A stretch of DNA of 64,000 nucleotides, from NCBI GenBank assembly GCA_963693055.1, contig OY843751.1, forward strand, positions 6,304,001-6,368,000. Reading direction: 5' to 3'. Positions within the stretch are counted from its first letter, which is position 1. Every line of letters starts with the position of its first letter. The position numbers and the translations under genes are program-made. The notes under the pieces were generated by a model, which did not search any database, was not told where the DNA came from, and worked only from the letters and a program-made list of their open reading frames with translations. This stretch comes from a bacterium (GTDB lineage Bacteria > Zhuqueibacterota > Zhuqueibacteria > Residuimicrobiales > Krinioviventaceae). Shown here in pieces: positions 5,810-55,386 of the stretch.

Positions 5810-6232
5810 TTGGACTTTAAGAAAAAATCAAAAGCAGGTAGCGGCATTTCTACGGCTTCCATGCCTGATATCATTTTTATGTTGCTGATTTTCTTCATGG
5901 TTTGTACTGTGATCAAATCATCACAAGGTTTAAAAGTGATATTACCGGATGCAAAGAAAATTGAAAAATTACCGGGTAAACGTGGTGTTGGCGTTATTTG
6001 GGCTGACCGTGCCGGCAATTTAACAATAGATGATAAATTTTTAAACCCCACAGATATTCGTAGTATCGTTTATCAAAAGGCTATTGACCCAACAAGCCCG
6101 TTAAAGATTGTATCTTTAAAGATTGACAGTCAGGTTGAGATGGAACGCGTAACCCAGATACACGAAGAGTTGCGGGAAGTTGGTGAAGCAGCATTGAATG
6201 TCAACTATTCTGCAAAAACTGCAGCAGATTGA
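5810..6232 (+). CDS. exbD: ExbD/TolR, type B copy 1 (TTG start)
   Basis: SMPDIIFMLLIFFMV. Confidence 0.9.
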   Translation: MDFKKKSKAGSGISTASMPDIIFMLLIFFMVCTVIKSSQGLKVILPDAKKIEKLPGKRGVGVIWADRAGNLTIDDKFLNPTDIRSIVYQKAIDPTSPLKIVSLKIDSQVEMERVTQIHEELREVGEAALNVNYSAKTAAD

Positions 6233-22864: not shown

Positions 22865-23443
22865 TTAAAGAGATAATATGCTGTTTATGTAGGTTTCCAG
22901 TAAGCGGATTTTGTCCAGACCGGACAAGTAACCAGCATATTGGCCTTGTTTGTTGAGAATTACAAATGTGGGATAATGGTGCACATTGAACGCCTGACGA
23001 ATTCGATTGTCCCGGTCAAAGACTACAGGGGTATCTATTTTGTATTTTTTAATGGCGTCTTGTATATTGTTTCGATCAAGATTGTTGTAAAAATTTGGGG
23101 ATTGTACATCAATAAACTTGACCTGGTCGCGATATTTTGCCTTGATTGCTTTTAACTGTTTGTGTTGTTCCATGGCTTTTGTGCTGCCAAAGGTCCAGAA
23201 ATTAATTATAACAATCTGACCTTTCAGGTCAGACAATTCAATTCGTTCTTTGGTATTGAACCAGTCCAGATGTTCCGGAAACTCGGGGGCTTGAATATTA
23301 TAGCTGCTGATTTGTCTTATTTCGTTGCGGATTTCATCGGGAGTAAAATAGACCTCACTACTCTGGTTTGCATTGGTACCGTCAATGTAAAACAGTGGAA
23401 AAGAGATACACAAAAATGAGAGTAATGTAACAAGTCTTTTCAT
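22865..23443 (-). CDS. Exported redoxin/thioredoxin-fold protein lacking CxxC
   Basis: APEFP..LDWFNT..LSDLKG.IVIINFWT, cis-Pro YPTF; active-site position reads FGSTKA. Confidence 0.75.
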   Translation of the reverse strand: MKRLVTLLSFLCISFPLFYIDGTNANQSSEVYFTPDEIRNEIRQISSYNIQAPEFPEHLDWFNTKERIELSDLKGQIVIINFWTFGSTKAMEQHKQLKAIKAKYRDQVKFIDVQSPNFYNNLDRNNIQDAIKKYKIDTPVVFDRDNRIRQAFNVHHYPTFVILNKQGQYAGYLSGLDKIRLLETYINSILSL

Positions 23444-23519: not shown

Positions 23520-23942
23520 TTAATCTTTATAGATAGTGATCTTGATTCTTGCTGACGTACTGACCAGAAAGGGAATATTTACCCCGGATTCGATATAAAA
23601 TGGATCGGGGTAAGCATCTTCCAATACAAAACTGTTCCAGTAGCCCGGTTCCCAGTGCTCTTCATTGTTGGATTCGGTTTTTCCACCTATTTCGGCAGTC
23701 ATATAATTGATCTGATCGTAATTTTTTGTTTCCATTGCGTATAGGTATTTGCCGGGTTCTACATATTTACCATTGTCGTCTTTGCCATCCCAAAAGTAGA
23801 CATACCTGCCAGATTCTGTAAAAGTTTGATCAACCAGCAGTCTTATTTTTTCTTTTTGGGTCTCACCTTCTTCAAGTGGATTGCTGCAAAAAACAAGACT
23901 GCCTGCTATTGTCAATAATATAAAAGTATATATTCTATTCAT
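23520..23942 (-). CDS. Lipoprotein with circularly permuted FlgD/T9SS-CTD-like Ig domain
   Basis: Lipobox LVFC; WDGKDDNGKYVEPGKYLY precedes FVLEDAYPDPF...IKITIY. Confidence 0.7.
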   Translation of the reverse strand: MNRIYTFILLTIAGSLVFCSNPLEEGETQKEKIRLLVDQTFTESGRYVYFWDGKDDNGKYVEPGKYLYAMETKNYDQINYMTAEIGGKTESNNEEHWEPGYWNSFVLEDAYPDPFYIESGVNIPFLVSTSARIKITIYKD

Positions 23943-23950
23943 AACACTGT

Positions 23951-23979
23951 TTTAACGAATATGATTTGTCAACGTTCCC
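23951..23979 (-). promoter_or_regulatory. Putative ECF-sigma promoter
   Basis: Minus strand GGGAAC-N16-CGTTAAA just upstream of ATG 23942. Confidence 0.5.
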
Positions 23980-26895: not shown

Positions 26896-26931
26896 AAATC
26901 CCCGGTAACCATGGGCTGCCGGGGATTTTTT
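26896..26931. terminator. Terminator between convergent genes (probably bidirectional)
   Basis: AAATCCCCGG/CCGGGGATTT stem, T-run on + strand. Confidence 0.8.
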
Positions 26932-27619
26932 AATTTTCAGACATATTTTCTCCATAAACCAACGATACCCGTTCTATGCCTTCATGCATTGCAAGTTCTT
27001 GCACCAGTTCCTGGTGGGTTTTATCTTTTTTAAAGCGCACATTGAATGTAAGCTCGAGGAATTCACCCAAACGCGCGGAGCGGATATTGACGAGGGAATG
27101 AACGGACAAGTATTTTTTAAATATTTCGAGATAGGCGGGTTTTTCATTATGTTCCGGCATGACCCAGAAGCGCAGCATCATTTCTTCATGAAATGTGGCG
27201 CCGTATTTGGTGAAATGTAAAATAATCACAACCAAAGCGATTATAACACAACCGATAATCCCGATAATGTGATTACCGGCACCTGCTGCCATACCTGCGG
27301 CCAGCGAGAAAAAGACAAACGCAATATCGAGCGAATCCTTAACTGCAGTTCTAAAGCGGATGATGGACATGGCGCCCACCAACCCAAAAGCCCTCGCCAG
27401 ATTATTACCAATGACCATGATAACAATTGTTGTAACCATCGTAATAATGATCAGTGTGTTTACAAATGAAACAGAATAGGCATATCCCTTGTAGGTCAGT
27501 TTATATACCAAGGTAATCAATAAACCCAAACATAAAGAAAGCAAAATATTGAAAAACACATCAAAAATAGTTATGGTTGCGCTGTTTGCCAGCAAACTTT
27601 CAAAAATGAGATCCTGCAT
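26930..27619 (-). CDS. DUF4956 membrane protein
   Basis: VIGNNLARAFGLVGAMSIIRFRTAVKD; several TM helices and an ACT-like C-terminus. Confidence 0.9.
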   Translation of the reverse strand: MQDLIFESLLANSATITIFDVFFNILLSLCLGLLITLVYKLTYKGYAYSVSFVNTLIIITMVTTIVIMVIGNNLARAFGLVGAMSIIRFRTAVKDSLDIAFVFFSLAAGMAAGAGNHIIGIIGCVIIALVVIILHFTKYGATFHEEMMLRFWVMPEHNEKPAYLEIFKKYLSVHSLVNIRSARLGEFLELTFNVRFKKDKTHQELVQELAMHEGIERVSLVYGENMSEN

Positions 27620-28367
27620 CCGTTAATCCTTTATTTCCGTTAAAATTTCCATCTATTCCCAGGCAGTATTTCGAAATCGATTCCGGTCGTATTTTAACTT
27701 TTTGTACCAGCCTTCGCATCCATTTGGGCATAAACTCGTCAAATTTCAGTTCAAGAATACATTGGGTTTCGGTAACCGGGGCAAGTGTTTCGTTTGTATA
27801 TATTTCATTGTGAGAGGGAGCATATTTCATTCTAACATTATAGTCTATGGTTAATCTGGCCCTGTCGTCAATCTGGTCCATGAATGCATCTCTGTCATAG
27901 AGTATCAGCAGGGTTGGTTCAAGGTTTAGTGTTGTCATATTATAAACAAAACGATGTAATGATCTATATTTTCCGTTCGAGCTCTTGAAACGGTTTACAT
28001 ATTCAACCGGTGTTTTCATCAATTCATCAATGTTTGTGATGGGTATTTTGGTCCTTTCTTTGACAACACAATTGTTGTATCTGCGTTTAATCTCTAAAAA
28101 TCCTATATTGTCCGGGTGAAAATCATTATATGTTCTTACGCGTAATTTTTTCCTTACTTTGAGCCCGTCTACTTTTTCATAATAAAAGTCGAGATCGGGG
28201 GTGTCGTAATAGAGACTGCGTACCAAATAGCGGTTGTTTTCCACTTTTTCCGCATAGGGGTCAAGTTTTACAAAAGGTCCAATCAAGTTTTTAATATGAT
28301 CTGCCATTTCAACGGGAACATAATACTTGATTTCGTAACGGGATATGTGATGTTTGGAGCTTGTCAT
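27600..28367 (-). CDS. VTC-domain (polyphosphate polymerase/CYTH-like) protein
   Basis: RYEIKY, VRSLYYDT, RKKLRVRTY, FLEIK, RLTID, ILELKF, SKYCLG. Confidence 0.9.
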   Translation of the reverse strand: MTSSKHHISRYEIKYYVPVEMADHIKNLIGPFVKLDPYAEKVENNRYLVRSLYYDTPDLDFYYEKVDGLKVRKKLRVRTYNDFHPDNIGFLEIKRRYNNCVVKERTKIPITNIDELMKTPVEYVNRFKSSNGKYRSLHRFVYNMTTLNLEPTLLILYDRDAFMDQIDDRARLTIDYNVRMKYAPSHNEIYTNETLAPVTETQCILELKFDEFMPKWMRRLVQKVKIRPESISKYCLGIDGNFNGNKGLTDAGSHF

Positions 28368-28388
28368 TGAATTATTCCATGTTGTGAA

Positions 28389-29480
28389 TTACATAGATAG
28401 TTTTCGTACTTTATAGTTATTCCACTGTTCAAGGAACCGTTTGTACAGAGGAACCGGTCCGAAATTGATTTTAGCGATTCCCGTAGAACCGGTTTTGATT
28501 TTGTTTTCGGGATTGGCAATACTGCATAACAAGTAGAATATGGACTGCCCATTCATAAAATGCGCCTGATTCCCGATTTCGAGTATTTGACATTCTCTTG
28601 ATTCATAATTGTTAAATGGTAAAGCGATCTTTATTTTTTGATCTGTCTTTACCCGGCCTATTAATGATTCAGAAACGGGTATTTTTACAATCAGGGTGTC
28701 GGTTTTGTTTACCTGGCATACCAGGCCGGCTTTGTTGCCGTCACTGACAATACCGGATACCGGGGAGGTGATTTGCTTTGCATGGTTTTTCATTTCAAGG
28801 ATTGAATACTGTTTTTCAAATCCTTCCAATTCGGTTTGGATATATTGAATATATTCAGGCTTTTCACCTGATTGGGTGGCTTTGAGTTTTGCCGTTTGTA
28901 ATTCTACATTTATCTGTAAAAGTTTGAAAGTGGCTTCTGCCAGTTCAAGTTCTTCAATGCTGACCAGGTTGGAATTGTACATTTCTTTTTTTCGCTCAAG
29001 CTGGGGCTTGTACGCTTTAATCTGGGCTTTTGCGTATTCAAGAGCTTGCTCTGCCTCTTGCTGCAACTCAATTTTTTCACCAACTTTTAACATTTGTAAT
29101 TCAGCGCGGGTTTGTTCAAGCTCGGCTTTAATTGATTCAATGCGATATTCGTCTTCTTTTGAATGTATTTGAGCAATTACTTGTCCTGCACGGATGGGGG
29201 TACCAAATGTTATGTCGGGTAAAAGTTTAAAATGTACCAGGTCTGGTCTGCTAAAGTGAAAGCATGAAAATTGGTCAACCAGATTTTTATCATTTCTTGT
29301 TAATTCCATATATAATTTTTCAGGATCATCCATATGAACCGACCACTCTGCCTGCGCTAAAAAAAGACAGGGGAAAATATGGGTTTTATTTGTTTTTATA
29401 AATGCTGACATGATGATTAAAAATATGACGACCAGCGATATCAGATACAAGATTGTTTTGTTTTTCAATTTTATCACCAT
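28389..29480 (-). CDS. HlyD/MFP-like periplasmic adaptor
   Basis: N-terminal TM, IRAGQVIAQI and ITSPVSGIV lipoyl halves around a long coiled coil, IKTGSTG. Confidence 0.75.
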   Translation of the reverse strand: MVIKLKNKTILYLISLVVIFLIIMSAFIKTNKTHIFPCLFLAQAEWSVHMDDPEKLYMELTRNDKNLVDQFSCFHFSRPDLVHFKLLPDITFGTPIRAGQVIAQIHSKEDEYRIESIKAELEQTRAELQMLKVGEKIELQQEAEQALEYAKAQIKAYKPQLERKKEMYNSNLVSIEELELAEATFKLLQINVELQTAKLKATQSGEKPEYIQYIQTELEGFEKQYSILEMKNHAKQITSPVSGIVSDGNKAGLVCQVNKTDTLIVKIPVSESLIGRVKTDQKIKIALPFNNYESRECQILEIGNQAHFMNGQSIFYLLCSIANPENKIKTGSTGIAKINFGPVPLYKRFLEQWNNYKVRKLSM

Positions 29481-29484
29481 TCTA

Positions 29485-30503
29485 TTATTTGAGATGTATT
29501 GCTTTAATTGTGTCTATATGCTTTTTGTCTATTTCCAGCCGGTAAAAATAAATACCGGATGGTAAAGTTGATCCATCCCATATTACTGTGTTTTCATTTT
29601 CAGATGGATAGAACGATTTTACTTTTTGTCCTAATATGTTGAAAATTGTGATTTCCGCGTTTTTCGATTTACCGGAAAACTGAATTGTTGTTTTATTGTT
29701 AAAAGGATTGGGATAGTTTTGATATAATACTGGAATGCTTTACCGGGATTGTCAAAAAGAAAACAATGGTCCAAAGCTGCGTCAGATTCATTGAACATTA
29801 AAACCGGTTGACTGTGAGAGTGCCCAAATTCTTTTTCCTGGTCAGCGCCTCCGTTATTGAAAATACAAAAAGACAGATTTGCAGTGGTATTGATATATTC
29901 TATTCCTCCCCAGGCAATATTCGTTTCATATGCATTAAAATATACAGGTTTGTCTTTTGAGCCTTCAATTAACAGTTTCCCATAAACCAGTAGATTAACC
30001 GTGTTATTCAAAAGTACAATTGTGCCTTCCTGAATTATCTATTCATCACTTGCCTGAATAGTGAGGTCGCTGTCAACGATATAACAGGTATCGCTTTTCC
30101 ACTCTGTAAATCCGTTCAGTTGACCACTGACATGCTTTTCAGGGAGTGTGATAAAATTTATGGTTTTTCTTTCTGTAATATTTTCAATTTCGAATATAAA
30201 TGTATTTTGCATTCCCGTTTCAATGATTGCGCACCCGGTCCCTTTTTTTAGGAAAAAGTCTTTACTGCTGGTTTGTTTGTTAAATGCCAGGGCATAGCTT
30301 TGTTTGGTATTGTTGCCAAAAAACAGGTTGTTCTTTTTGGGGAGGACAATAACAGGTAAAGGGCAGTTTTGACAAATCTGGTGCAATGTTATGAATTCAT
30401 ATTCAGAGACAAAGTATGTATTGGGATCGATGGAATTATCTCTTGAACAATTGGCCAGAACCAGAAGGGACAAAAATAATATATTATATAGCTTGTTCAT
30501 CAT
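29485..30503 (-). pseudogene. Disrupted beta-helix lipoprotein gene (in-frame TAG at 30039-30041) joined out of frame to an orphan CTD (29485-29739)
   Basis: ORFs 30503-30042 and 30038-29631 share a frame across a single TAG; another frame reads SIPVLYQNYPNPFNNKT...GIYFYRL...KAIHLK*. Confidence 0.75.
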
Positions 30504-33127
30504 TTAAACAGTACTGCCTTTTTAGTATCTACTATATTGTTATTTACAACCAATTGATAAAAATATACACCTGAACTTTGATTGATGGTGTTCCAGGTAA
30601 CCATAAAAGTATTTGTTGGTGGTGTGAGTGATTCAACAAGCTGTCCGGTTATGTTGTATATTTTTATTTCAACTTTTTGATTTAATTTTGTAATAAAGCT
30701 GATATGGGTTTTTTCGTTAAAAGGATTTGGGAAATTTTGTCGCAGGTACGAATTATTTGCAGGCTGCGCCGTTGTATCGATTTTACTGTACCTGCTGTTA
30801 AAAGCACACGGACTACCAAAATTTTCAGAAGCTGCCCAATGTTGTGCTACATTATTGTCAAGTAATGGGTTGATTAATTCAAGGGTTGCACCACTGCCAT
30901 CCGGACTTTCGGGCCAGGGTGCGTGATCGTCAAACGCCACAGAATCTATGGTGTTGTGTAACGCATCATAGAGGATAAGTTGTTCTCCGGAAGCACTTAG
31001 TTTGAAATCCATTTCACCGATGATTTTTTCTACATTTGGAAAACCCGATTCAAAGTCATCCATGTCTGAACAGATAATCATAAAATCGTTGGGAAGGATA
31101 GTAGTGTTTGCAGGAAAACGGTACATGTTTTCCGAATTTCCATCGGAAATTGACCAGTAAGAGATATCCGTAACAGTATTGTTGGGGTTGTACAATTCAA
31201 GCCAGTCACCAACATCAAACGCTTCTGCCGAGTTGTAATTGATTTCATTGATTACAATGGTTGCGAACTCACTATTAATGGGTTCATAATGAGTACAAAG
31301 CTTTGATGTGATTTTTGTTTGAGCTGGAGAAAATAAAGCAATTGAGTCATCTATGGCTATGTCAAACAATGCATTACCGATTGTTTTTTCTTTGGTTATG
31401 GTTGCCATTGAAAGTTCGGTGTCTGATGAAATATAAAGACTTTTTTTAGCCTGAACTATTGTGCCTTGCGGAATGAGAAATTGGTTCCAATATTCTCCGG
31501 ATTGAAGCGTGCAGTATGAAAGATCAATATCTTTATCAGAGTTGTTGTGCAGTTGAACCGTATAGTCATTATCTATTTTATAAATACTACCGAGTTGAAT
31601 GTTTTGTTTTATATTCATTTCTTCATCAAACAGACGAATTGCATGAGAGTGGGAACTGTTGAATTTTATATAAAAGTGTCCGTTTGCCGGGTAATCATAA
31701 TTTTCAATTGAGAAATAATACGGCAAGAGCTGTGGAGAAAAATTTTTAAATTCAACCTGACAGCCATACAAGAGATCACCAGCTAAGCTGTCATTATGAT
31801 TGCCATCATCATACATGGGAAATGTTTTTAAATAAAATCCGGACGTGCCTGCCCAATCCATATCTTTAATGATATTCAATTTTATATTCTGGGGTTGAGA
31901 GGATTTGACCTGAAATGTGACTGTGGAATCGGGAGTGGGAAATGGATTGGAACAATAAAAGTTTGCAACTTGTGGTCTGTTAAATGTAGTTTTGGTTTTC
32001 AGGAATTCTTTACGCTTTGTAAAAAAGGATTTTAATTCTATAATTGAATCGTCAAATTCCTGATTTGTACATCTTTTAAAGGTGTCATTGTAAATATCTG
32101 GTTGTATTCGAGTTACGTCATTGTCTATTTCAGAAAGCAGGTGCGAAAATTTTTCGTCAATGATGGATTGAACAGTATTCCAGAACATTATTTTGTATTT
32201 TTCATGCTCTAACAGTCTTTGAAAGAGGAGCTGATTTTTTAAAGGGCTGTCATAATAAAATGTCTCATAATCTTGAATGTATTCACCTTTCCAGGAAAAA
32301 CCCCAGGCTGCATCATTGTCCCATGGAAAGATCTCCCAAAGATCTGTTTTGGGATTTAAATAAAAGAACAAATTTTTTGTAAAACAATCATAACTGGATA
32401 TTACAAATTCAATCGCAAAATAGTTGATAATATTTTCAACATTAACCATGTTTTCAATGTTGTTGACAAAATCCGTATTATTGTAATAATATAGCTTGTT
32501 TAAAAGAGTTATCAGCTTTTGATAATCTTTTGGGTCACCAATTTTTTGTTCCCATGAGATGGGATATTCCCCAAAGTGACAAAGGGGAGCCATGTTGGCG
32601 CTATGGTTTATAGCTTTAAACAAGCTGTTTTTTTGACGGTCATTATCTTTTAAAAAGTATTCATCAATGTTTTGTATACATAGGTATACGCCTCTAAATT
32701 CATTATTAACATATAGTTTGATGTGTTTAGTTTTTGGAGCAGGAAAGCCCATGCTTTTATAAAGATTGTTTGTCAGGTGATTTCGAAGCATTGTGTTGTC
32801 AATATATTCTGCGTTGAGATTTAACTTTTCACAATCAAAATCATTATTGTCACTAAACAAATCAATCTTCCAACTCTTTTTGGGATGGTTGCGAGAAGTT
32901 GCACCTCTGTACCTGACCTGACATTCATAGACTTTATCATCGAAAGCAAGCTGAGCCGGATAATAAATATCATCGTATGGGTTTTTGTCAAGTGTATCAA
33001 GCGATTCCTGGTCAATAATTATATAATATTCTGGAAGCTCATCCGCATATAATAGCGAGATAAATAACATTATAAATAGTGTCATAAAAAAATATAATAA
33101 TTTGAAATTTTTGGGAAATTTTAACAT
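30500..33127 (-). CDS. Secreted CotH-family kinase with lamin-tail domain(s) and C-terminal CTD
   Basis: YRGATSR.HPKKSWKI, LNLNAEYID..LRN, SYD..TKN, PWDND; INEINYN..WLELYN; QNFPNPFN..SGVYFY. Confidence 0.88.
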   Translation of the reverse strand: MLKFPKNFKLLYFFMTLFIMLFISLLYADELPEYYIIIDQESLDTLDKNPYDDIYYPAQLAFDDKVYECQVRYRGATSRNHPKKSWKIDLFSDNNDFDCEKLNLNAEYIDNTMLRNHLTNNLYKSMGFPAPKTKHIKLYVNNEFRGVYLCIQNIDEYFLKDNDRQKNSLFKAINHSANMAPLCHFGEYPISWEQKIGDPKDYQKLITLLNKLYYYNNTDFVNNIENMVNVENIINYFAIEFVISSYDCFTKNLFFYLNPKTDLWEIFPWDNDAAWGFSWKGEYIQDYETFYYDSPLKNQLLFQRLLEHEKYKIMFWNTVQSIIDEKFSHLLSEIDNDVTRIQPDIYNDTFKRCTNQEFDDSIIELKSFFTKRKEFLKTKTTFNRPQVANFYCSNPFPTPDSTVTFQVKSSQPQNIKLNIIKDMDWAGTSGFYLKTFPMYDDGNHNDSLAGDLLYGCQVEFKNFSPQLLPYYFSIENYDYPANGHFYIKFNSSHSHAIRLFDEEMNIKQNIQLGSIYKIDNDYTVQLHNNSDKDIDLSYCTLQSGEYWNQFLIPQGTIVQAKKSLYISSDTELSMATITKEKTIGNALFDIAIDDSIALFSPAQTKITSKLCTHYEPINSEFATIVINEINYNSAEAFDVGDWLELYNPNNTVTDISYWSISDGNSENMYRFPANTTILPNDFMIICSDMDDFESGFPNVEKIIGEMDFKLSASGEQLILYDALHNTIDSVAFDDHAPWPESPDGSGATLELINPLLDNNVAQHWAASENFGSPCAFNSRYSKIDTTAQPANNSYLRQNFPNPFNEKTHISFITKLNQKVEIKIYNITGQLVESLTPPTNTFMVTWNTINQSSGVYFYQLVVNNNIVDTKKAVLFK

Positions 33128-53697: not shown

Positions 53698-55386
53698 TTA
53701 CAGGTTCCCGGCTAAAACCAATGTTCCTGTTTGTTTTTCTGTTATCCCTTTTCCTGATTCAATGCATTCCAAAAGAACAATATAAATACCCATTCTACAG
53801 CATATACCTTCATCATCCAGACCATCCCAAAAGACTGTACCTTGAGCGGCACAACTTTCATTGTTACATAAAAATCTGACTTGTCTGCCTACACTGTCAA
53901 ATATTCGAATGTTGATTTTTGAGGTATAGCGGGGAAGAATATAATTGATGCCTGCATAGTCTTCGTGCCCATCACCATCAGGAGAAAAGGGGCTGGGAGA
54001 TATTTGGATGCTTGAAGCGGTTGGCAGCATATCGGTATAGATACTGTTGGACAGTCCTGCCGAATGGCCGTTTGTATTTACACAGCTCTTCCAGTTTCTG
54101 TATTCATTACTCTCTGATAGAGGATTCAACCGTTCCAACGAGATCCCTTTGGCGCCTCCCCAGGATTCGTAATATTCCACATACTCTACAAGCGAGCCGA
54201 TGGCATCCCGCAATGCAATGCTGTCCGCGTCGTTAACCAGTCCCGGAAATGACAGAGGAACCAGAACATTGGTTTCCTGAGATAAAAAAGGTACAATTGT
54301 GCTGTCATCTGCAATTACCGCAAAGCTTTGAGAGGGAAGCCAAAACGGTGTATGGGTGAATGTTTTTGCTTCTCCCTGATTGTCATAATACATCCAGTTT
54401 TGCAGGTTGATATCCTTTTGGCTGGAGTTATAAATTTCAAACCATTCAGGCATATCCGGTTGAGGCGAGTACATGATCTCATTCACAATGACAGAACCTT
54501 TTGGGTATCCTCCAATAATCTGTAGAGAGTCAAGATTGTTATCCGGATTTTCATCTTTTTCACATACCAGCTCAGCGGTTATATAGAAAATGCCATTCGG
54601 AAAATCATTCCATTCTAATCCAAGTGTTGCGGATTCGTCCGGTTCCAGCATTGAAAAGACAATTCCGTCTTTAATTTTTTGATATGGACCCTCCTGGTTG
54701 CATGACCATGAAAACACTATTTCCGCAGCGTCTATTGTCTGTGCACCTTTGTTAATAACAGTTATTTCAAGATCAAGGGGTTGGCCAGATTGAGGAGGAT
54801 TGGGAAGAATGTTTATTGATCCTTTAACAATAGCAGGATCGATGGCTTTGAGCGAGATAGAGTTTCTGTAGCCAGGTGTACCATTCATTATTGTGCTGTG
54901 TCCCCAACTGTTTTGATCATACCGTATGCGTTCTTCTGAAATTCCATCATCATTCGGGATTGTATATTGGAACGAATCTACCATGGTACTATCGGGTTTG
55001 TATAAAAAAACAGTCTCTGCTCTGGTATTTGACAGACCATAGGCGCCAATCTGTGAGTGGTTGATGGTAAGAACCAGGCAATCTTGAGGGATTTGATTGT
55101 CATATTCAGTACTGTTGATAAAATAGTTTTCAACCAGTACAAGGGCATACTGGCCGGGAGCCAGTAAGGTATGTTCATTATGGGCAATTAGAATACTGGT
55201 GCGATCGGCATCGCCAATCAACCAGCCATTGATATCTATTGTTTCGGAACGACTTGAATTATAAAGTTCAATAAATTCATTGTAACGTTCATTCCCTTGA
55301 GGATTAAACATAATTTCAGATAAAAATATCTCTGAATAACATACTGCGGACAACAACAACACGAAAACTGCAGGTACTATTTTCAT
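53698..55386 (-). CDS. Secreted protein with two lamin-tail domains, CARDB-like domain and C-terminal FlgD/CHU_C-like domain
   Basis: SEIMFNP..EFIELYN and NEIMYSP..EWFEIYN; PFSPDGDG..D; WDGLDDEG. Confidence 0.8.
   Translation of the reverse strand: MKIVPAVFVLLLSAVCYSEIFLSEIMFNPQGNERYNEFIELYNSSRSETIDINGWLIGDADRTSILIAHNEHTLLAPGQYALVLVENYFINSTEYDNQIPQDCLVLTINHSQIGAYGLSNTRAETVFLYKPDSTMVDSFQYTIPNDDGISEERIRYDQNSWGHSTIMNGTPGYRNSISLKAIDPAIVKGSINILPNPPQSGQPLDLEITVINKGAQTIDAAEIVFSWSCNQEGPYQKIKDGIVFSMLEPDESATLGLEWNDFPNGIFYITAELVCEKDENPDNNLDSLQIIGGYPKGSVIVNEIMYSPQPDMPEWFEIYNSSQKDINLQNWMYYDNQGEAKTFTHTPFWLPSQSFAVIADDSTIVPFLSQETNVLVPLSFPGLVNDADSIALRDAIGSLVEYVEYYESWGGAKGISLERLNPLSESNEYRNWKSCVNTNGHSAGLSNSIYTDMLPTASSIQISPSPFSPDGDGHEDYAGINYILPRYTSKINIRIFDSVGRQVRFLCNNESCAAQGTVFWDGLDDEGICCRMGIYIVLLECIESGKGITEKQTGTLVLAGNL

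Follow-up and report, generated by a model that had tools for sequence, protein, structure and literature searches.

The open reading frame at 23520..23942 (minus strand, 140 aa, ATG start), delimited from the frame and its homologues, encodes a predicted lipoprotein whose only domain is almost certainly a circular permutation of the type A C-terminal domain (CTD) of type IX secretion systems (T9SS), i.e., of the T9SS type A CTD/FlgD-Ig fold. The gene is flanked by trpS and a thioredoxin-like gene in the window, that is, the whole 64,000-nucleotide stretch of DNA analysed here. The two complementary halves of the fold are inverted, the cut falls at a turn, a linker joins the old ends, and a single compact domain is predicted. 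No passenger domain stands ahead of the permuted CTD, which is preceded by a tether only.

Inverted halves of the domain

A CTD profile of 94 positions, for which 181 CTDs from the genome containing the window were used, matched the protein twice: positions 39-91 were matched by residues 29-82 (28.9 bits), and positions 3-37 by residues 103-139 (14.6 bits). The initial annotation had claimed that the second half of the domain is N-terminal and the first half C-terminal, with the cut at the IYN-x-x-GQK hairpin turn. Both statements agree with the profile matches, in which the break between positions 37 and 39 lies at the same turn, between strands s3 and s4. The expectation that a profile search would give two hits in inverted order held for the own-genome profile and failed for Pfam, where the sole match was to FlgD_ig and remained below the threshold (residues 42-74, the s4-s6 half; 23.9 bits with a cut-off of 27; E 4e-5). 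The Pfam and NCBIfam scans gave only sub-threshold FlgD-type matches, located on the N-terminal s4-s7 part, and listed no match to TIGR04183 or PF18962. Searching the sequences of solved structures returned half-length FlgD matches only.

Both profile matches were found in inverted order in 11 of the 12 proteins tested; in the twelfth, P0011, the second-half match has only a negative score. Profile-profile comparison with the CTD set gave 98.7% (E 3e-16) for the N-terminal part of the family and 97.4% (E 1e-11) for its C-terminal part. At least 8 bits against the CTD profile were reached by 47 of 55 real C-terminal parts and by none of 2200 shuffled ones (1920 reported by HMMER, maximum 6.2). 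The motifs L-x-x-x-YP-x-PF, WDG and G-x-Y, characteristic for the fold, are retained in the permutant.

Along the chain (all coordinates on the minus strand), a predicted signal peptide II (residues 1-18, 23889..23942) is followed by the lipobox Cys19 with a short acidic tether of the C-x-N/D-P type (residues 19-28, 23859..23888). The lipobox noticed in the initial annotation is a constant feature: Cys follows a hydrophobic stretch, at +1, in 55/55 aligned members, lipidation itself being a prediction. Pro is found at +4 in 54/55 members and at least two acidic residues within +2..+10 in 50/55, the tether length ranging across members from 9 to 14 residues. Strands s4-s7, the normal second half, occupy residues 29-84 (23691..23858), s7 being devoid of the conserved Lys. 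The linker (residues 85-102, 23637..23690) comprises 18 residues here, close to the roughly 20 estimated earlier; the span matching residues 85-103 varies between 18 and 26 aa in the 55 members, and its Gly86, Gly87 and Asn92 are conserved in the family. Strands s1-s3, the normal first half, fill residues 103-140 and are followed by the stop (23520..23636); Gly120 and Asn122 of this part are family-specific. With the order s4-s7, linker, s1-s3, the last strand s7 has become internal, as had been stated for the displaced export strand.

Predicted structure

AlphaFold2 with a 55-row alignment predicted one compact seven-strand domain (pLDDT 91.9, pTM 0.83) with the strand order s4-s5-s6-s7-linker-s1-s2-s3. 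All five models were confident compact monomers with pLDDT 91-98 over model residues 11-122. The linker is ordered in them and contains one additional short strand; the sole disordered part is the tether, with pLDDT <50 over model residues 1-9 (the first nine of the mature chain). The strand pattern maps one-to-one onto the control model of a normal-order CTD from the window, including two small s5-s6 bridges. The structure prediction proposed as a check in the initial annotation thus yielded a compact sandwich with strands in permuted order, and the models point to a closed seven-strand sandwich with new ends at the old s3-s4 turn.

Foldseek found nothing at E<=0.001 for the permutant model (best listed probability 0.47), and a second fold search gave a best Z of 5.2, with nothing above background. 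The same searches with the normal-order CTD control retrieved the PorU CTD (TM 0.71, Z 10.8), PorZ, FlgD and translocon-bound CTDs. Missing the permutant while finding the control is consistent, though indirectly, with the permuted topology of the model; from the misses, a fold that is new or otherwise distinct does not follow.

Distribution and descent

Of 167 genomes from the phylum, 61 carry a full-length family member, each as a single copy. These are 41 of the 43 genomes of the own order and 20 genomes in seven families outside the own class; in the same 167-genome set, other families of the own class hold no member. The family spans two classes of the phylum, and its relatives are by name mostly candidate division KSB1. 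Homologues with the same order, whose absence would have suggested a misassembly or a one-off rearrangement according to the initial annotation, are therefore widespread, and neither explanation applies. Among 140 short proteins retrieved as homologues, 86 have the permuted order, 49 the normal one and 5 neither clearly. The lipoprotein P0146 (135 aa) combines the family's first half with an unrelated tail and is possibly a frameshifted family member.

The alignment and the tree were based on 55 distinct members of the 61. In the tree, the own order is separated from the other class with support of 100/99, as vertical descent would give. Comparison with the same-genus orthologue gave a dN/dS of 0.059 for the mature part, which corresponds to purifying selection; the signal part is relaxed (dN 0.19) relative to the mature part (dN 0.02).

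Samples of 86, 151 and 201 genomes from three other groups outside the phylum yielded no match at E<=1e-12; 22-52 candidates were scored per genome, and the 151- and 201-genome sets overlap. The best 80 loci of a contig database search included 18 full-length matches, the remainder being half-length; the titles of the 18 were KSB1, 'bacterium', 'uncultured Cytophagia' and, once, Calditrichota. The nearest Atlas clusters (0.90-0.93) are 133-138-aa FlgD-Ig proteins of other phyla, which may be normal-order lone-CTD lipoproteins; the C-terminal part alone gave 0.80, a lead only. Longer proteins gave only weak full-length matches, none above 42 bits and most of them to tandem repeats, and no fused forms of the permutant were evident among the long-protein matches listed. 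No such permutant was found in the literature on T9SS with KSB1 or on circular permutation in connection with FlgD or type IX secretion, subscription papers being outside the scope of this search.

Loss of cargo features and relation to T9SS

The host genome (G000) encodes SprA, 22 PorV-family genes and two tandem PorU over the cut-off, as well as 244 CTD-like ORFs; its main PorV gene lies at G000 C1:3067392-3068489. GldM/GldN gave no match in the host genome, and the control searches were also empty, so that this result does not show absence. An LTD protein in the window (53698-55386, minus strand) has a divergent CTD-like end scoring 29.7 bits against the host CTD profile, which may represent another CTD type.

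Mapping has placed the export signal in the last two CTD strands, and in type A CTDs an almost invariant Lys near the end is described as contacting PorV (PMC10994853, PMC4804311). Of 181 host CTDs, 157 have Lys at -6; in the family, 0/55 members have it at the aligned column. The mature chain of the permutant is acidic, with a mean net charge of -4.8 versus +2.0 for the basic CTDs. The protein was rejected as T9SS type A cargo, since it has neither a passenger nor a terminal export strand, all members lack the Lys, and the domain is acidic. In PMC10994853, the translocon pocket is presented as plastic, recognizing CTDs by size, shape and hydrophobic contacts and not by sequence, while CTD motifs are said to specify the fold and not the binding.

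PorV was found in 143/167 genomes and the permutant family in 61/167; hence, the permutant is not a core T9SS component. Being absent from most PorV-bearing genomes, the family cannot be an essential plug or chaperone. No T9SS gene occurs in the conserved neighbourhood. For Bacteroidota, PMC5080379 reports K-(D/E)2 or Q-A-(D/E)2 after the Cys as the export motif of surface lipoproteins. In its strict form this motif is found in 16/55 members, the consensus being that of Bacteroidota, which may not apply to this phylum.

Genomic neighbourhood and promoter

The conserved neighbours of the family are genes for an S9 peptidase, an amidase and an Smr-domain protein. At 39 of 55 loci, distributed over both classes, the gene upstream is one for a secreted S9 (Dpp5-like) peptidase in the same orientation, and its stop and the lipoprotein start often touch or overlap. 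In the other class, the Smr gene follows the lipoprotein gene. The S9 gene is missing at 16/55 loci in several lineages (one case is a contig end). The host genome and the same-genus genome G085 have lost it, and only a paralogue with 40-41% identity is present. Where genomes lacking the family have an S9 orthologue, the lipoprotein gene was not found in any of 20 stretches downstream of it, five of which end at contig ends; in three of the 20, Smr directly follows S9, and in one it stands after a short ORF. The adjacency of the S9 and lipoprotein genes reads as an old synteny with deletion and not as an obligate pair. An obligate S9 partnership was rejected, as each gene has been lost without the other, and the host keeps the lipoprotein at a dN/dS of 0.06.

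The thioredoxin-like (AhpC/TSA) protein encoded downstream (22865-23443, minus strand) has FWTFG at the position expected for CxxC and may therefore be redox-inactive. Elsewhere in the window (26930-33127, minus strand), genes for DUF4956, VTC-domain, HlyD-like and CotH-kinase (with LTD and CTD) proteins form a cluster.

The ECF-like promoter proposed in the initial annotation is plausible as a motif and does not extend to the family as a whole. GGAAC-N16-CGTT is present at 23954..23978 (minus strand, read from 23978 to 23954), 11 nt ahead of the ATG in the 43-bp gap after trpS. At the matching position, it occurs in 2/55 loci only, those of the host and G085, both of which lack S9, and is thus genus-specific; two other loci have less exact matches at a greater distance upstream. 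Within the host genome, GGAAC-N16/17-CGTT was found near 13 gene starts versus 3.7 expected from a uniform model, in which the composition of intergenic DNA is disregarded. The genes bearing the motif encode mostly predicted envelope proteins, many with signal peptides, and include an ExbD-like gene of the window (5810-6232). Judged by the motif, these starts possibly constitute an ECF regulon.

Origin

Among the matches in long proteins, 180 of 189 full-length ones cover the junction of two tandem FlgD-Ig repeats. Such junctions score at most 42 bits versus 103-173 bits for family members. Since they display pieces of the half-linker-half type, duplication followed by trimming is an available route, and the permutant could have arisen from a duplicated and trimmed CTD or FlgD-Ig unit with a lipoprotein signal placed at the cut. 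The halves score up to 36 bits against host CTDs and only 13 bits against the true FlgD of the host, which is encoded by a separate flgD gene. A FlgD match was found in only 9 of the 61 family-positive genomes, which argues against an involvement of flagella.

Possible function

The explanation preferred here, though held with less than even confidence, is that the lipid-anchored (predicted) permuted CTD is a dispensable, non-exported, CTD-shaped accessory occupying or guarding CTD-binding sites. Candidate sites would be the outer-membrane parts of the secretion system, PorV-family barrels, SprA or PorU. By general Ig topology, the cut would lie at the pole opposite to the normal attachment of the passenger, so that the lipid-tethered fold would sit on the membrane upside down relative to cargo. 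As the translocon is reported to read CTD shape and not sequence, the permuted fold could still fit the site without being exported. The inverted halves, the CTD origin, the T9SS machinery of the host and the loss of cargo marks count for this accessory role. Against it stand the lack of T9SS neighbours, the absence of the family from most T9SS-bearing relatives and the fact that the retained motifs specify the fold and not the binding. The lost Lys, the acidic surface and the additional 18-residue linker could equally abolish PorV/SprA binding. It is rather doubtful that, as a more specific proposal would have it, the KSB1 lineage turned a T9SS signal into a tethered non-exportable mimic which sits in empty CTD sites of PorV-family proteins or the translocon and tunes or gates secretion where the GldM/GldN motor was not found.

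Because the lost features could abolish binding and no T9SS gene is adjacent, it is nearly as likely that a CTD-derived fold was repurposed as a small Ig-like envelope or surface lipoprotein with a partner unrelated to secretion, the permutation having removed it from the cargo pool. Such repurposing would agree with the loss of all cargo marks, the family's own conserved residues in the linker and the s1-s3 part, the lack of T9SS neighbours, the patchy distribution compared with PorV and the excess of the ECF-like motif at host starts, many of them of genes with signal peptides. Tandem FlgD-Ig repeats in long proteins, including names from Elusimicrobia and Salinispira, also indicate that the fold has uses in other settings. 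However, among the genomes sampled the family is confined to a phylum that abounds in CTDs and PorV-family genes, its halves are closest to the hosts' own CTDs, and a second family of lone-CTD lipoproteins exists in 7/167 genomes. A role as membrane anchor or adaptor of the upstream S9 peptidase would explain the close same-strand arrangement in both classes, and the one S9 peptidase scanned matched no CTD model and would itself lack a CTD; this role is nevertheless improbable given the 16 loci without S9, the host and G085, which keep the lipoprotein under purifying selection beside a mere paralogue, and the 20 empty stretches downstream of S9 in family-negative genomes. Instead of closing on themselves, the halves might pair with their counterparts in other copies or in cargo CTDs, which would lead to swapped dimers, chains or exchanged strands; such pairing has a precedent in the RgpB CTD, for which PMC4804311 describes dimerization via a swap of the last strand, and the two halves do correspond to pieces found at tandem-repeat junctions. 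The strand-swapping partner suggested in the initial annotation is still less probable than an S9 anchor, as the predicted monomer is closed and does not favour swapping: all five models are compact with an ordered linker, and the linker is held at a length sufficient to span the domain. The suggestion that the protein is a relative of the flagellar hook-cap protein FlgD, a decayed relic or an assembly artefact draws on the sub-threshold FlgD_ig match, the only one in Pfam, and on FlgD being the best match among solved sequences. It is already largely refuted and barely credible in view of the separate true flgD of the host, the rarity of FlgD in family-positive genomes and a frame that is intact in 61 genomes and conserved between same-genus orthologues.

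Significance

The protein represents a naturally occurring circular permutation of the fold that serves T9SS as export signal; it is conserved in two classes of the phylum and escapes family scans and fold searches. Three features that are always joined in cargo are uncoupled in it, namely the CTD fold, a last strand at the chain end and the conserved Lys, which makes it a reagent for the question whether the system reads the CTD shape or the last strand. Binding to PorV or SprA would make the permutant a secretion accessory of a new type; failing that, it would still clearly exemplify how a secretion signal became a lipoprotein domain standing on its own.

Comparison with known systems

The permutant has the complete set of seven strands and the fold motifs known from the T9SS type A CTD (TIGR04183/PF18962; solved for RgpB, PorU, PorZ, RemZ and NucA), and its hosts likewise encode SprA, PorV and PorU. 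The permutant differs from this CTD in the strand order, in being a lone domain on a predicted lipid anchor and in the internal export strand; it is acidic, devoid of the conserved Lys and matched by neither model. At most, it works like a CTD, and it does not belong to the type A cargo family. With the FlgD Ig-like domain (PF13860) and tandem FlgD-Ig repeats, the permutant shares the s4-s6 half and the order found at junctions. In tandem repeats, however, each half belongs to its own complete domain, whereas the permutant has no flanking halves and is predicted as one domain. Unlike FlgD, it has no N-terminal domain of the FlgD type (no PF03963 match in the Pfam scan) and no flagellar link.

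Among known systems, PorA of Porphyromonas is a CTD-containing protein with a regulatory role, and Plug of Flavobacterium is a non-cargo protein associating with the translocon. Neither is known to have been described as a permuted CTD.

The closest parallel in architecture is the second family mentioned above, lipoproteins with a lone normal-order CTD, which occurs sporadically in its seven genomes, the host included. One of them is a 134-aa protein at G000 C1:5441244-5441645 (L204:1245-1646, plus strand). Like the permutant, these proteins have about 125-135 aa, a lipobox, a short tether and a single CTD with no passenger. Their strand order is normal, Lys or Arg is present at -6 in five of the six read, and they are no closer to the permutant than ordinary CTDs are. 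At G000 C1:3116990-3117385 (plus strand), a protein of 131 aa is encoded that has a signal peptide and no passenger either; its lone CTD is divergent and in normal order. The existence of the second lipoprotein family suggests that a tethered lone CTD is a recurring design; the permutation itself is unique so far, whereas the tethered lone CTD is not.
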